Shown here in pieces: positions 1 through 4,985 of a stretch of 4,985 nt of DNA. The notes below the pieces were generated by a model that was not told where the DNA came from, did no database searches, and worked only from the letters and a program-made list of their open reading frames with translations. Every line of letters begins with the position of its first letter. Within the stretch, counting starts at the first letter, position 1. The DNA comes from a virus (Duplodnaviria; Heunggongvirae; Uroviricota; Caudoviricetes), in IMG/VR virus record IMGVR_UViG_2684622620_000008. The stretch is one strand, 5' to 3'. A program made the position numbers and the translations under genes.

Positions 1-546
1 CAGTGCAATGCTGTCCAGAATACGCGTGACCTGAACGCCTGAAATCCCAAAGGCAACAGTGACCGTCAGGCATTCCTTTGTGAAATCATCGACGCAGGTA
101 AGACACTTGATCCTGCGACCGGTGGAAAGTGCGTCCATGACGAAATCCATCGACCAGGTCAGATTGGGCGCCGCCGGACGGAGCAGCGGCAGACGTTCTG
201 TTGCCAGCCCTTTACGACGTCTTCTGCGTTTTACGCCCAGGCCACTGAGGTGATAAAGCCGGTACACGCGCTTATGATTAACATGAAGCCCTTCACGGCG
301 CAGCAACTGCCAAATACGACGGTAGCCAAAACGCCTGCGCTCCAGTGCCAGCTCAGTGATGCGCCCTGATAAATGCGCATCAGCAGCCGGACGGTGAGCC
401 TCATAGCGGCAGGTCGACAGGGATAAACCTGTAAGCCTGCAGGCACGACGTTGCGACAGACCGGTCGCATCACACATCAACATCACGGCTTCCCGCTTCT
501 GGTCTGTCGTCAGTACTTTCGCCCAAGAGCCACCTGAAGCGCCTCT
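1..546 (-). CDS. IS3-family transposase OrfB (DDE catalytic domain), 5' part only; expected to be expressed as an OrfAB fusion by -1 frameshift
   Basis: My own translation of the minus strand in the frame ending at 511-513: RGASGGSWAKVLTTDQKREAVMLMCDATGLSQRRACRLTGLSLSTCRYEAHRPAADAHLSGRITELALERRRFGYRRIWQLLRREGLHVNHKRVYRLYHLSGLGVKRRRRRKGLATERLPLLRPAAPNLTWSMDFVMDALSTGRRIKCLTCVDDFTKECLTVTVAFGISGVQVTRILDSIAL, with no stop down to position 1. It is -1 relative to OrfA, overlaps the OrfA 3' end (513-546), and contains the first D-containing motifs of an IS3-type DDE transposase (WSMDF, CVDDFTKE). The 231-473 ORF in the supplied track is a different frame and is not this gene. Confidence 0.85.
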
Positions 547-773
547 TTATCCAGCATGGCTTCGGCAAGCAGCTTCTTGAGTCTGGCGTTCTCTTCCTCA
601 AGCGACTTCAGGCGCTTAACTTCAGGCACCTCCATACCGCCATACTTCTTACGCCAGGTGTAAAACGTGGCATCGGAAATGGCATGCTTGCGGCAGAGTT
701 CACGGGCGGGTACCCCAGCTTCGGCTTCGCGGAGAATACTGATGATCTGTTCGTCGGAAAAACGCTTCTTCAT
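510..773 (-). CDS. IS3-family transposase OrfA (helix-turn-helix DNA-binding and leucine-zipper part)
   Basis: 87-aa ORF MKKRFSDEQIISILREAEAGVPARELCRKHAISDATFYTWRKKYGG...LEEENARLKKLLAEAMLDKEALQVALGRKY. The N-terminal HTH followed by heptad leucines is the conserved OrfA architecture of IS3/IS407-group elements, and it is immediately followed by the -1 OrfB frame. Confidence 0.9.
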   Translation of the reverse strand: MKKRFSDEQIISILREAEAGVPARELCRKHAISDATFYTWRKKYGGMEVPEVKRLKSLEEENARLKKLLAEAMLDKEALQVALGRKY

Positions 774-814
774 GGGGATGTCCTCATGTGGCTTATGAAG
801 ACATTACTAACATC

Positions 815-844
815 GGGGTGTACTAATCAACGGGGAGCAGGTCA
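815..844 (-). repeat. IS terminal inverted repeat (transposase-proximal end); the inner boundary is approximate
   Basis: The outermost IS bases on the minus strand are TGACCTGCTCCCCGTTGATTAGTACACCCC (reverse complement of 815-844). Only the outer boundary at 844 is supported; the partner IR is outside the window, so the IR length cannot be measured. Confidence 0.5.
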
Positions 845-869
845 GAGCAACCCGTCCAATTTGGTTTGC

Positions 870-888
870 TCTGCTTTATACTAAAGCA
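870..888. other. Lambda-att-core-like motif and 7-3-7 palindrome in the int 3' flank (candidate attachment-site core or Int/IHF-type binding site)
   Basis: Plus strand 870-885 reads TCTGCTTTATACTAA. The lambda common core is GCTTTTTTATACTAA (attB flank CTGCTTTTTTATACTAA), so this matches with three T's missing from the T-run. 872-888 (TGCTTTA TAC TAAAGCA) is a perfect 7-bp inverted repeat with a 3-bp spacer. Orientation relative to int (core on the plus strand, int on the minus strand to the right) is the same as in lambda. Confidence 0.3.
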
Positions 889-908
889 ATAAAGGGAGTA
901 ATTTATTA

Positions 909-2087
909 TTAGCTGGCTTTAATTTCTCCATGGGGAACGACAACCCAATCTATATGATTTTGCGTGTAGATCTTGGTTGACTTCGCATCGCTGTGCGCCA
1001 TTCGTCCTTGTGGATCGATACCCTGCTGATCGAATAGATGCGCTGCTAGTGCTCGAATTTCGTGAAAGGTTGGTCTTTCATCCATTGGTAGATTGTCGCA
1101 TAAACCTAGTTTGTCCCGTGTAGCTGAAAACGACCTACTCAAATAGTCCGGTGCAACTTGAGTAGGATGTGAAACCTCTTTGCTGCGTTTAACTTGGCGT
1201 TCTGGGATCCTGTGAACGACAAACGGACTGGCCACATTATCTCGGCTATCGTCAATTATCCGTTTCAACTCTTCACCAATTGGTATTGCAACGTGTGACG
1301 CCTCTTTTTGTTGCACTTTTTGCCTGTGGATGTAAAGCGTCCCATATATGCCATTTTGTGGTTGTTCGAACCAGACACATCCACATATACCGTCTTTAGG
1401 TTCGCGAATTGAGTAACGGATTCGCGATACTTCGAGTCGTGCATGTGTAGTCTGCAATGCTAGGTCCATTGCTGTTCTTAACCATGGTGCAGCGGCCTGC
1501 CTGATAGCTATAAAATGCTCGAGTGACAGGCGCCGTCTTTTCTTCTCATCAGTCCTACGCATTTTTTTTCTGATGGCCGGGTTATCCAGCATTAGTGATT
1601 CATCGACCGCATAAGAGAACAACTTTTTAAGAAAGCTGACCTTTCTGTTCTGCACATTTGCGGATGCGCTGGCATGATATTTGTTGATGTAGGTATTAAC
1701 GTGTTCAAGTTCGATATCGCATGCCGGAACATTTACGAAAAACGCTTTTACGCGTAGAGCGTCATTTTTCCAGTTATCTAAGGTGCTCTGGGAAGGACGT
1801 TCGTCTTCGATAATTCGGGCCATTATGTGATCAACATGTTCAGCAAATGGTTTTGCTTCTCCGATAACACCGCCAGATTCTCTAATAAGATTATCTACTG
1901 ATGGAGATAATTCTGGTCGCATCCTCAGGTTGTACTCTCTGGCGATTGCAATGGCTATTGCCCTATCCTTACCTATATTTTTCTTCTTTCCGGTAATAAG
2001 TGTGAATTTATAAACACCTCGATCTTTATCAAAAATCAGATAATCAGGAAGATGTCTGTATTCTTTTTTACGTGGCCTTGCCGCCAT
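909..2087 (-). CDS. int: Phage tyrosine integrase, lambda Int type (N-terminal arm-binding domain plus C-terminal catalytic domain)
   Basis: The N-terminus MAARPRKKEYRHLPDYLIFDKDRGVYKFTLITGKKKNIGKDRAIAIAIAREYN parallels lambda Int (MGRRRSHERRDLPPNLYIRNNGYYCYRDPRTGKEFGLGRDRRIAITEAIQAN). The C-terminal motifs HEIRALAAHLF and MAHSDAKSTKIYTQ match the lambda HELRSLSARLY and LGHKSDTMASQY catalytic His/Arg/Tyr box. GAGGGG lies 8 nt before the ATG at 2087; the supplied ORF begins two codons earlier at a GTG (2093) that overlaps the xis stop, and either start is possible. Confidence 0.9.
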   Translation of the reverse strand: MAARPRKKEYRHLPDYLIFDKDRGVYKFTLITGKKKNIGKDRAIAIAIAREYNLRMRPELSPSVDNLIRESGGVIGEAKPFAEHVDHIMARIIEDERPSQSTLDNWKNDALRVKAFFVNVPACDIELEHVNTYINKYHASASANVQNRKVSFLKKLFSYAVDESLMLDNPAIRKKMRRTDEKKRRRLSLEHFIAIRQAAAPWLRTAMDLALQTTHARLEVSRIRYSIREPKDGICGCVWFEQPQNGIYGTLYIHRQKVQQKEASHVAIPIGEELKRIIDDSRDNVASPFVVHRIPERQVKRSKEVSHPTQVAPDYLSRSFSATRDKLGLCDNLPMDERPTFHEIRALAAHLFDQQGIDPQGRMAHSDAKSTKIYTQNHIDWVVVPHGEIKAS

Positions 2088-2089
2088 GG

Positions 2090-2299
2090 TCACCCCTCAT
2101 TTATTAACTTGCGAACAGCTTGACTAACCATTGAGTCGACTCCCCATTTTTCTGTTTCGCAGACAAAAACAGAACCGTCCACGATACGCCCCATGAGCAG
2201 ACCGTTCTCGACCCAGCGTTTTATCGTTCGGTTGTCAGGAATTGAGCCATTAGAGAATTCACGGCGTCCCCATTGGCTCGCTTTCATTAGTTTTGCCAT
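2090..2299 (-). CDS. xis: Excisionase (Xis), lambda-like small winged-helix recombination directionality factor
   Basis: A 69-aa product MAKLMKASQWGRREFSNGSIPDNRTIKRWVENGLLMGRIVDGSVFVCETEKWGVDSMVSQAVRKLINEG lies immediately upstream of int, with its stop (2090-2092) overlapping the int start region. It has the lambda Xis pattern (QW..R, T..RWV, DG). The start is taken at the ATG at 2297-2299, which is preceded by GGAGAAACAGCC; the supplied ORF begins 15 codons earlier at an ATG with no obvious RBS. Confidence 0.7.
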   Translation of the reverse strand: MAKLMKASQWGRREFSNGSIPDNRTIKRWVENGLLMGRIVDGSVFVCETEKWGVDSMVSQAVRKLINEG

Positions 2300-2360
2300 G
2301 GCTGTTTCTCCACTTAACCCGCTGCACACGGGCAGTAATATCAAATTTCAGTCCTGATAA

Positions 2361-2576
2361 TTAATTTTGTTCTATGGTTGCTACCTGTTTAATTGGCCTG
2401 ATGCTGTCCAGGAGCAGTCGGCGGCGCGTATTTTCTGCAAAGTGGCGGCGTCCGGTTTCTTTGTGGTAAAACTCGTTTTTTCCGACGACCCACATCCGCT
2501 TTGTCTGGTGCAGTTTTTTTACCTGCGGACCGTTTCGGGTAATAACAATTCCTGTATGAGTTTTTATCACGCTCAT
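2361..2576 (-). CDS. Hypothetical small basic protein (71 aa), function unknown; lambdoid early-accessory (ea-region) gene
   Basis: ORF MSVIKTHTGIVITRNGPQVKKLHQTKRMWVVGKNEFYHKETGRRHFAENTRRRLLLDSIRPIKQVATIEQN. Its ATG (2574-2576) overlaps the TGA of the upstream gene (2573-2575) in an ATGA arrangement, which argues for real, translationally coupled expression. It has the same orientation as the operon. I do not recognise the family. Confidence 0.5.
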   Translation of the reverse strand: MSVIKTHTGIVITRNGPQVKKLHQTKRMWVVGKNEFYHKETGRRHFAENTRRRLLLDSIRPIKQVATIEQN

Positions 2577-2935
2577 TTCTTATTCTCCGGTGCTTTCGGC
2601 ATTACTGCCCAGTGAGTGATATTGACGTTTTCAAGGTCCCCGACCTGAAATGTCCACTGCCATTCTCCGGTTTCTTTTTGCCCCCATGTGTACCAGAGAG
2701 AACGCCAGCCAATCAGCCAGCCTTCTCCGTTAACATCAAATAACAGAACACTTTCATTTGCTGGTGGCAGTTCAGCTGACACTGGTATTACTTTGTTTTC
2801 CAGTGCTGCACATTTAGCTTCAAGCGCATCTAATTTACGCACCAGGTATTCAGCATCCGTTTCATTCACTTTCAGGTCTCGTGGTACACATCTCCCGCGA
2901 AGAAACCCTTCCATTTCGAAAACATTCATGCGCAT
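2573..2935 (-). CDS. yfdS: DUF551-like phage protein, YfdS homolog (N-terminal coiled-coil segment, C-terminal Trp-rich domain)
   Basis: 120-aa ORF. The C-terminus GEGWLIGWRSLWYTWGQKETGEWQWTFQVGDLENVNITHWAVMPKAPE has the Trp-rich ...THW.MP.P signature that I associate with DUF551 proteins of lambdoid prophages. Length and position after yfdR match K-12 yfdS as I recall it. An alternative start is the ATG at 2927-2929, which overlaps the yfdR stop (ATGA). Confidence 0.7.
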   Translation of the reverse strand: MRMNVFEMEGFLRGRCVPRDLKVNETDAEYLVRKLDALEAKCAALENKVIPVSAELPPANESVLLFDVNGEGWLIGWRSLWYTWGQKETGEWQWTFQVGDLENVNITHWAVMPKAPENKK

Positions 2936-3462
2936 TTTCGTAACTCCGATAACTCGTGAAAGCGTTCCATAAACATCCCGTAGGCATGGCCCGGTGGCAT
3001 TGGAATCACGTTGAACATCTCTGTTGCCGGGATGCCTTCCAGTACCGGCCAGAAAGAGCCATCATCAAGCCCGAGATCGCGGCGTTCGGTTGCCAGCATA
3101 ATGAGATCGGCATATTTCACTGGCGTGCTCATAACAGGAGGTAACCCGTATTTCTCACGGATTACGGCGTCTATTTTTTCTTCCATCCGTTTATAGTCAG
3201 GAAGAAGGCGTTTCAGTGGCGCGGGGATGTCCTGGCAATATGCTTCTGTTGCATCATGCATTAACGCTTCAAAAGCAAATTCCTGCTGCACCAGCTGGCT
3301 GCAAAGCACCGCATGTTGGGCGACACTGTAGAAGTGTGAAAGATGACCGGCAAAGCGACAGATATTTGAAAGGGAAACCGCGATATCGTTAATCACGATG
3401 TCGTCTTTATTTATCCTGTCATAATAAAAATGCTTCCCGGAAAAAGTTTTAATAAATGACAT
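2926..3462 (-). CDS. yfdR: HD-domain phosphohydrolase (YfbR-like 5'-deoxynucleotidase family), YfdR homolog
   Basis: 178-aa product from the ATG at 3460-3462 (MSFIKTFSGKHFYYD...), preceded by GGAGAACAAA. HD-domain motifs are visible: H..H in RFAGHLSHFYSVAQHAV, HD in ALMHDATEAY, and downstream acidic residues (KYADLIM, ERRDLGLDD). Length and position match K-12 CPS-53 yfdR as I recall it. The supplied ORF starts 10 codons earlier at an ATG with no RBS. Confidence 0.85.
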   Translation of the reverse strand: MSFIKTFSGKHFYYDRINKDDIVINDIAVSLSNICRFAGHLSHFYSVAQHAVLCSQLVQQEFAFEALMHDATEAYCQDIPAPLKRLLPDYKRMEEKIDAVIREKYGLPPVMSTPVKYADLIMLATERRDLGLDDGSFWPVLEGIPATEMFNVIPMPPGHAYGMFMERFHELSELRKCA

Positions 3463-3555
3463 TTTGTTCTCCGCGTATATGTGCTGCACCACGCTGAATT
3501 CTGGTAAAAGGAAGCCCTCACCATCCGGCGATTATTGAGTCAATTACGTTTCCAT

Positions 3556-3577
3556 AAATGCCCCCGCAGGGGCATTT
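3556..3577. other. GC-rich stem-loop in the yfdQ-yfdR intergenic region (possible weak terminator, attenuator or RNA-processing hairpin)
   Basis: AAATGCCCC-CGCA-GGGGCATTT is a perfect 9-bp stem with a 4-nt loop. It begins 12 nt after the yfdQ stop on the minus strand. The trailing U-run is only 3 and is base-paired in the stem, so it is not a canonical strong intrinsic terminator. Confidence 0.4.
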
Positions 3578-3589
3578 GCAGTAATGAAA

Positions 3590-4414
3590 TCAGGCGGTGA
3601 AAGTACCAATAAAGGTTTCTACTTTGCTGTCCTTGAATTTCTCAACAAGCAGATCACGAAATTCGTTAGCCATTTCTTCCTGCACTGCTTCCAGCTGAAT
3701 AATGCGCAGAACCAGTACAGGACGATCGCCAGTGATAATGCTGAGGCGTAATTTAAATGGACGTTCTTTCAGGCCTTCAAACGGAACGCATTTAAATTCA
3801 AATGCCACTGGCATAATGTCTTTGGTCTTCGCTTCGACAGACTCCATCAGGGAGCGTTTGCCGCTGAAGTCATTATCTTCAAAATCAGCGGTCTGGTTTG
3901 CTTCAATCGTGATTTTACGGACAGCCGCAGCCGCTTTTGTTGCCTGAATAGCGTCACCATTAGCATCAAAGCCCACAAGGTAGTCGGCCCAGTCTTCAAT
4001 CCATTCTGCCAGTGACTTCTGGGAATTACGCTCGCCATTAACAGACAACAGAGCAGAGAACGGTGCTGTCTTTTTCAGTTTGAGAGTGGCGGTGTTATCG
4101 GCGTGACCTGGTTCATCAATAGTACCCAGGTTAAGAACACTGACGGCACGCATATTATCAGCATCGATAAAGCAGCGGGTGCCTTCATCTGCAAGATCTT
4201 TAGAATAACAGGTAAAGTCATCGATGCTGGCAGTGGAAAGCGCACCACGGAAACGGAAGCGATTTAAATTAAATTTTTCCAGATCATGAATGCGGAAATT
4301 CTCAGGCAATGCCACAGCATCGGCACCAATCTTACTGATAATTTCATTAACACCCTGAGCAGAAATAAGAGCATGGATTTGATTAATTGCGGTTGCGTCT
4401 AAGTTCTGAGACAT
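3590..4414 (-). CDS. yfdQ: Prophage protein YfdQ homolog (I recall it as a DUF2303-type protein), function unknown
   Basis: 274-aa [28 protein letters not shown]... with GAGGA 7 nt upstream of the ATG. Length and position immediately upstream of yfdR match the K-12 CPS-53 yfdQ-yfdR arrangement as I recall it. Confidence 0.8.
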
Positions 4415-4479
4415 AATAAGTCCTCACTATATAAAGATATTCAGTGATGAGATAAATAATCAGTTAATTAAGAACGATA

Positions 4480-4842
4480 TTAATGACCTGCTGCGCGAAG
4501 TTTTCCGTCAGGTTCACCGGCAAGAGTCAGTAATTGTCCCTGGTCTTCCTGCAGAATAGTCAGGCGACCACCGCGATTGACATACATCGGCGTTTCGGTG
4601 GTGTCTTCTTCAGAAATTTTCCCGCGGTTAGTCGGGCGAACATATGAGAGTTTGTGTTTGATTTTCACACGGTTCTCATCAAACGGTTCGATTTCCAGAT
4701 TGAGTGAGACCTTCCCTTTGGTTTTCGTGTTCATCACACCGGAAGCGACTTCACTGAGAACTGCGCCGATTTTGGTTTCAAATACGCCGCCGTCCAGCTC
4801 CCCGATAAATGCCTGCACATCAGTACTGCGTTCGCTAGCCAT
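4480..4842 (-). CDS. yfdP: Prophage protein YfdP homolog, function unknown
   Basis: Start taken at the ATG at 4840-4842 (MASERSTDVQAFIGELDGG..., 120 aa), which is preceded by GAGGAGCAGCAAA. The supplied ORF begins 6 codons earlier (4860), at an ATG that overlaps an upstream frame's TGA, so a translationally coupled 126-aa form is an alternative. Confidence 0.7.
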   Translation of the reverse strand: MASERSTDVQAFIGELDGGVFETKIGAVLSEVASGVMNTKTKGKVSLNLEIEPFDENRVKIKHKLSYVRPTNRGKISEEDTTETPMYVNRGGRLTILQEDQGQLLTLAGEPDGKLRAAGH

Positions 4843-4856
4843 TTTGCTGCTCCTCA

Positions 4857-4985
4857 TCATATCGACCCTGCAAGGCCGATTAGTTTCTCCACAAAACAGA
4901 GAAGAACACCTGCGGTGGCAGCCGCCCGGATGGATTGGGTTATGAGCCCGTCGTCCGGTGATGCTCTTCTCTGTTTTGTAAAAAG
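4857..4985 (-). CDS. Possible 3' end of an upstream minus-strand gene running off the window (partial)
   Basis: The minus-strand frame ending at the TGA at 4857-4859 is open to the window edge (about 42 codons, ...ITQSIRAAATAGVLLCFVEKLIGLAGSI*), and its stop overlaps the first ATG of the yfdP ORF (ATGA). The yfdP frame is also open to the window edge, so the coding assignment here is uncertain. Confidence 0.25.
   Translation of the reverse strand, partial: LFTKQRRASPDDGLITQSIRAAATAGVLLCFVEKLIGLAGSI
4891..4979. repeat. Inverted repeat, 17-bp arms with one mismatch, about 55 bp apart, upstream of yfdP
   Basis: 4891-4907 ACAAAACAGAGAAGAAC pairs with the reverse complement of 4963-4979 (GCTCTTCTCTGTTTTGT gives ACAAAACAGAGAAGAGC). 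The interior is GC-rich with further short inverted segments (CACC...GGTG, CCGGA...TCCGG). Confidence 0.5.

Follow-up and report, generated by a model that had tools for sequence, protein, structure and literature searches.

An E. coli yfdR orthologue in a lambdoid prophage early-left operon: a YfbR-type HD active site predicted in a protein whose K-12 counterpart binds DnaA

The gene studied here, located in a stretch of 4,985 nucleotides of Caudoviricetes DNA (the whole of which is called the window hereafter), is by its sequence an E. coli yfdR orthologue. It very probably encodes a mononuclear HD-domain 5'-nucleotidase that belongs to an early-left operon and also binds the host initiator DnaA at its domain I. 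The enzyme activity and the DnaA binding proposed for the window protein are carried over from the 97%-identical K-12 protein and are worded accordingly below.

The open reading frame found on the minus strand of the window extends over 2926..3492 with an upstream GTG start. The internal ATG at 3462 leads to a product of 178 aa ended by a TGA stop, which is the length of RefSeq yfdR in E. coli genomes, and this ATG is preceded, with a spacer of 4 nt, by a sequence that reads as a Shine-Dalgarno motif, GGAGAA (Table 1). The ORF 2926..3462 is a real gene, and the limits given to it in the original prediction were exact, the stop codon being included. The plus-strand ORFs lying inside yfdR (2956..3144, 3011..3196 and 3216..3392) were treated as shadow ORFs, the minus-strand gene being the conserved one. 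When the window was scanned for promoters, terminators and tRNAs, nothing near yfdR rose above background.

Table 1. Position of yfdR, of its predicted active-site codons and of the neighbouring cassette genes in the window
Feature	Position	Strand	Evidence
yfdR coding sequence; predicted HD-domain 5'-nucleotidase, probably also binding DnaA	2926..3462	-	ORF; 172/178 identical to K-12 YfdR (b2361); phrog_318, E 5.5e-109; RefSeq yfdR in the same frame
Shine-Dalgarno sequence GGAGAA	3467..3472	-	Sequence reading; 4 nt 5' of the yfdR ATG
R36, putative equivalent of YfbR R18 (phosphate and sugar contact); F37, putative equivalent of YfbR W19 (deoxyribose gate)	3352..3357	-	hhalign; R36 in 79/80; position 37 F in 71, Y in 8, W in 1
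H50, putative equivalent of YfbR H33 (first metal-binding His of H...HD...D), in SVAQH	3313..3315	-	80/80; hhalign
H69-D70, predicted HD dyad, equivalent to YfbR H68-D69	3253..3258	-	BLASTP, HMMER and hhalign agree; each 79/80
E73, predicted equivalent of YfbR E72; D78, predicted equivalent of YfbR D77 (ribose hydrogen bond)	3229..3246	-	BLASTP and hhalign; E73 in 79/80, D78 in 77/80
D119, predicted last metal ligand, equivalent to YfbR D137, in VKYAD	3106..3108	-	hhalign pairs VKYAD with VKQAD; 79/80
yfdS-like gene (DUF551)	2573..2935	-	96% identical to K-12 YfdS; 10-nt overlap of its start with the yfdR stop
yfdQ (DUF2303)	3590..4414	-	99% identical to K-12 YfdQ; Pfam DUF2303, E 7.9e-92; directly upstream, same operon
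yfdP, first cassette gene	4480..4860	-	phrog_204, E 1.3e-50; yfdP in matching genomes; Pfam YfdP on matching loci

The yfdR product is identical at 172 of 178 positions (97%), without gaps and over its full length, to YfdR of E. coli K-12 (b2361), which is encoded by the cryptic prophage CPS-53/KpLE1. The six substitutions (K16R, P59Q, L155M, A156P, N169H and D170E) all fall outside the conserved positions, and every conserved YfdR residue is unchanged between the two proteins. At the codon level, 12 differences between the two genes are synonymous and 6 change the amino acid, and the conserved sites are untouched. Among 5426 complete E. coli genomes, 2971 gave a match to yfdR, with 80-99% nucleotide identity and at most 4 copies per genome; the gene carries there the label 'yfdR: 5'-deoxynucleotidase'. 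Several NCBI assemblies also contain the identical protein, and their DNA shares 99.3-99.4% identity with positions 843..4985 of the window. Both the gene and its context are already known: the gene is named, annotated, present in more than half of the complete E. coli genomes and biochemically studied.

The neighbouring genes show the conserved order yfdPQRS found with YfdR orthologues in lambdoid early-left operons, and yfdP, yfdQ and yfdS are also the neighbours of yfdR in K-12 CPS-53. The TGA of yfdR and the ATG of yfdS overlap over 10 nt (ATGCGCATGA), an overlap shared with CPS-53 that makes a translational coupling of the two genes likely. The RefSeq start of yfdP is internal to the ORF listed in Table 1 and gives a protein of 120 aa. 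The spacer between yfdQ and yfdR measures 127 nt and its predicted fold is not unusual (z = -1.7); it contains a perfect GC-rich hairpin at 3557..3578, AAATGCCCC-TGCG-GGGGCATTT on the minus strand, without a T-run. In the near-identical NCBI assemblies and in one RefSeq genome, the cassette lies between a gene for a cI-type repressor (HTH_3 and Peptidase_S24 domains) and xis/int, and the other arm of these prophages carries cro/cII-side replication, RusA, Q-antiterminator and holin genes. As the cassette stands between the cI-type repressor and int, its location is, by gene order, the early-left operon of a lambdoid prophage, in line with the prophage early operon first proposed for it. [quoted passage not shown]

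The prophage of the window is a fuller lambdoid element than K-12 CPS-53 and differs from it beyond the shared genes. At the place occupied by yfdT in CPS-53, the window has an ORF of 71 aa (2361..2576, minus strand) that matches phrog_1226, a family of unknown function, and has no similarity to YfdT. The published inhibition of initiation was mapped to yfdQRST, so that the fourth gene is a different one in this prophage. Further downstream, the region 909..2344 (minus strand) contains a 394-aa integrase with a lambda-type arm-binding N-terminus and a small upstream ORF (84 aa in the window, 69 aa as annotated in other genomes); neither this integrase nor the excisionase is related to IntS or TorI of CPS-53. 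The unrelated integration module, together with a yfdS that is not followed by yfdT, points to the cassette as a mobile block within mosaic prophages, and in the sequences compared yfdPQRS is common to lambdoid prophages whose integration modules differ. The prophage adjoins narP and the ccm genes in related genomes. At positions 1..859, the window carries the terminal part of ISSen4, an IS3-family element that shares 99.4-99.5% identity with its E. coli counterparts; its orfA is intact (510..773, minus strand). The homology to the prophage loci, which are otherwise 99.3% identical, starts at 843, which places ISSen4 directly against the int-proximal end of the prophage, where it may have disrupted the attachment site.

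Concerning the family, the protein matched over residues 1-178 the PHROG profile phrog_318, named 'deoxyribonucleoside 5' monophosphate phosphatase' (E 5.5e-109). The scores obtained with the curated YfbR families stayed below their cut-offs: 23.4 bits for Pfam PF12917 YfbR-like (cut-off 25.9, E 5.4e-5), 18.2 bits for PF13023 HD_3 (cut-off 22.5, E 2.5e-3) and 18.5 bits for NCBIfam NF003009, the equivalog of the YfbR 5'-deoxynucleotidase (cut-off 122). On these profile scores, YfdR is homologous to YfbR but lies outside the curated Pfam and NCBIfam boundary, in a distinct, phage-rich sister family. The deoxynucleoside-5'-monophosphatase Dmp of phage T5 was considered as the origin of the phrog_318 name and rejected, as it is not homologous to YfdR: it shows no BLASTP similarity to it, has no HD or other Pfam match above threshold and belongs to the separate phrog_415. 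Dmp is nevertheless the product of a phage early gene with the same reaction class, and hence a plausible functional analogue of YfdR. Among solved structures, Atu1052 of Agrobacterium tumefaciens (PDB 2gz4) comes closest, with an E of 9e-14 for the single sequence and of 5.2e-17 with the family profile. This protein, about 21-26% identical to YfdR, was deposited without known function and informs on the fold, not on the function. The AF2 model of YfdR is of moderate quality (pLDDT 74.5, weakest at residues 39-59) and retrieved Atu1052, not YfbR.

An exhaustive search (E up to 1e-3) gave a family of 22,785 clusters at 50% identity, and 330 phage records carry it, with hosts that range from Escherichia to Bacillus, Caulobacter, Vibrio, Rhizobium and Pseudomonas. 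The homologue of Bacillus phage pW2 (2992..3567 of locus L008) lies between genes for thymidylate synthase/DHFR and thymidine kinase, a neighbourhood that suggests a role in phage pyrimidine salvage or in the dTMP route, as proposed for YfbR. In Vibrio phage VpKK5, the homologue belongs to a replication/recombination module, among Sak4, SSB, a Cas4-type exonuclease and a helicase. Nine representatives of 354-413 aa (P0122, P0127, P0129, P0141, P0158, P0176, P0196, P0216 and P0241) have two YfdR-like stretches each, which look like a tandem fusion of HD domains from this family.

To map the active site, the window protein and 79 full-length representatives, 33-67% identical to the query, were aligned (n = 80), and this alignment was compared by hhalign with an alignment of YfbR, OxsA, Lin2634 and HDDC2 obtained from a PDB search (n = 4). 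The two alignments matched with a probability of 96.3% and an E of 1.8e-9, a level that, like those for phrog_318 and 2gz4, is far outside what chance would give. When YfdR and YfbR were compared alone by BLASTP, HMMER, MAFFT and hhalign, only the segment from HD to PxK was reliable (33% identity over 40 aa by BLASTP, with this segment alone recognisable), and the N-terminal part was wrongly aligned with an amphipathic helix that lies earlier; the register was solved only after the addition of OxsA, Lin2634 and HDDC2 to the YfbR side. In this register, all eight functional residues of YfbR have an aligned counterpart in YfdR, seven of them identical and W19 replaced by F37, and the aligned active-site positions are conserved at 96-100% among the 80 representatives. 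The proposed equivalences of R36, F37 and H50 come from this one profile-profile alignment, with its four YfbR-side sequences, and from conservation. The pairing of H33 with H50 agrees with the placement on phrog_318, where YfdR 1-178 covers positions 97-274 and YfbR residue 30 falls on position 143. Compared with YfbR, YfdR has a deletion of 16 residues between the H50 helix and the HD helix. E72 of YfbR is reported to be a catalytic residue (Zimmerman et al. 2008), and the comparison with YfdR was reportedly used there as support for W19 being the selectivity switch.

The two proteins probably belong to the same HD fold class (YfbR, PDB 2PAQ, Pfam PF12917) and, by the alignment, share the same mononuclear H...HD...D site; YfbR is a housekeeping protein encoded on the chromosome, YfdR a protein carried by phages. 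In YfbR, a single Co2+ is bound by H33, H68, D69 and D137, R18 and D77 make contacts with the substrate, and W19 keeps ribonucleotides out by steric hindrance (PMC8177086). The profile searches and the YfbR alignment indicate that the HD site of YfdR is intact, with metal-ligand and catalytic residues of the YfbR type that are conserved in the 80 representatives. They thereby bear out the original prediction of an intact HD signature with a catalytically competent type of site, built around MHDATEAY (residues 68-75). Some details of that reading have to be corrected. If the 'H..H' taken as motif histidines meant H40 and H43 (GHLSH), the first metal-binding His is instead H50 (VAQH), present in 80 of 80 representatives; of the 80, 71 have H and 9 have Q at position 40, and H43 is variable. 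Among the downstream Asp residues invoked, D119 fits the role of metal ligand, but D78 is the counterpart of the sugar-binding D77. The assignment to the YfbR 5'-deoxynucleotidase type stands as far as the active-site match is concerned and is qualified by the sub-threshold scores of the sister family and by the Phe at the place of the gate Trp. Two other residues, E126 (LATERRDL; 3085..3087) and K84 (PxK; 3211..3213), are invariant in the 80 representatives, and the PxK lysine K84 is common to YfdR and YfbR (PVK); no role was named for either residue in the literature found.

Taken together, these data allow a mechanism to be proposed. One metal ion, presumably Co2+ or Mn2+, would be held by H50, H69, D70 and D119, R36 would position the phosphate and D78 would bind the sugar hydroxyl. 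E73 would assist a metal-activated water in its attack on the phosphate, the (d)NMP being converted into nucleoside and phosphate. The replacement of the bulky deoxyribose-gating Trp by Phe37 would relax the sugar specificity, so that ribonucleotides would be accepted too. Noguchi and Katayama, in the passage where they cite Zimmerman 2008, describe YfdR as a structural homologue of YfbR and a phosphohydrolase with much lower affinities for nucleotides than YfbR (PMC4776307). A metabolic engineering study citing the same source presents YfdR as a CMP phosphatase, the deletion of yfdR leaving the CMP yield unchanged (PMC10870394). Through these two papers, Zimmerman 2008 is the source for a metal-dependent in vitro hydrolysis of (d)NMP by K-12 YfdR, and the kinetic values for YfdR are likewise second-hand. 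An activity on CMP, a ribonucleotide, would fit the Trp-to-Phe change at the sugar gate; YfdR is probably not deoxy-specific, and the term 'deoxynucleotidase' may be too narrow for it.

The original prediction also raised the binding of DnaA, and this side corresponds to what is reported for the K-12 orthologue. K-12 YfdR binds DnaA domain I directly, in a Phe46-dependent manner and in competition with DiaA and DnaB (PMC4776307), the competition with DnaB being restated later (PMC12122000). When yfdQRST is overexpressed, initiation at oriC is inhibited both in vivo and in vitro (PMC4776307, restated in PMC12122000). By analogy, the window protein would be made on induction or infection, yfdR being cotranscribed with yfdP, yfdQ and yfdS from the early-left operon, would bind DnaA domain I at the Phe46 patch in competition with DiaA and DnaB, and would hold back initiation at oriC together with its neighbours. 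Other proteins, namely lambda P, B. subtilis SirA and E. coli Dps, likewise bind DnaA and inhibit initiation, SirA and Dps also through domain I (PMC4776307). They are unrelated in sequence to YfdR and are not enzymes of its type, and lambda P, unlike YfdR, binds domain III.

These observations could be taken to mean that YfdR is mainly a phage inhibitor of host initiation acting through the Phe46 patch of DnaA, its HD site being a leftover or a ligand sensor. We consider this unlikely. The competition was moderate and its authors allow for a possible overexpression artefact, and the deletion of yfdQRST gave no change of initiation under standard conditions (PMC4776307). In the window, yfdT is missing, which is one gene of the cluster studied. 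Moreover, the catalytic residues are almost invariant in 80 diverse representatives, which argues for selection on the active site, and the family is carried by Bacillus, Caulobacter, Vibrio and Rhizobium phages, whose hosts have a divergent DnaA domain I, and often in nucleotide-metabolism modules. In the literature found, no phenotype ties either the nucleotidase or the DnaA binding to phage fitness. A further scheme would join both activities in a bifunctional early phage factor. Its HD site, with the relaxed Phe gate, would drain or reroute host (d)NMP pools or remove a nucleotide-derived immune signal, while a separate surface, proper to the enterobacterial clade, would block the loading of DnaB and DiaA on DnaA and stop host initiation in lytic growth, with a possible coupling through the nucleotide occupancy of the active site. 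This scheme is speculative and, in our opinion, quite improbable.

The accessory part of early-left operons often houses counter-defence and signalling genes, and yfdR lies in such a part. An HD phosphodiesterase or a (d)NTP triphosphohydrolase that destroys immune nucleotide signals or reshapes dNTP pools could then be envisaged, the more so as the HD superfamily includes phosphodiesterases and dNTPases (PMC8177086) and as a weak match to phrog_7076, 'dATP triphosphohydrolase', was obtained (E 1.3e-4). The best matches are, however, families of the monophosphatase type. The extended phosphodiesterase motif H...HD...H...HH...D (PMC8177086), known from HD-GYP and related proteins, is not found in YfdR: the sequence scan of residues 71-118 gave no His, and the lack of a His between the HD dyad and D119 indicates a mononuclear site, not one of the phosphodiesterase type. 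PADLOC gave no match for yfdR or its neighbours, and the papers mentioning YfdR give it no such role. A part in degrading nucleotide signals, as first suggested for this protein, thus finds no counterpart in these results, and we regard a counter-defence or signalling enzyme as very improbable. The idea that yfdR is a decaying passenger of a defective prophage, without current function, recalls that K-12 CPS-53 is cryptic, that an IS element abuts the int end of the window prophage and that deletions are without phenotype under standard conditions. It is hardly tenable in view of the intact frame and the good ribosome-binding site, of codon differences to K-12 that are synonymous in 12 cases against 6 and spare the conserved sites, and of the presence of the cassette in the functional phages cited above. 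The reading preferred here remains that of a mononuclear HD-domain 5'-nucleotidase that also binds DnaA.

As a known gene in a described context, yfdR offers little in the way of discovery, and the question of catalysis versus DnaA binding was already recognised in the literature. What is gained is a cleaner map of the active site, with H50 as the first ligand and a Phe in place of the deoxyribose-gating Trp, and an argument from family-wide conservation for selection on catalysis, which is the only element that the sequence analysis adds to this question. The very large size of the family, the wide range of its hosts, the near-invariance of its catalytic residues and its nucleotide-metabolism neighbours suggest that the ancestral function of YfdR, and the one under selection, is catalysis in nucleotide metabolism; the binding of DnaA would then, at most, have been added in the enterobacterial clade.
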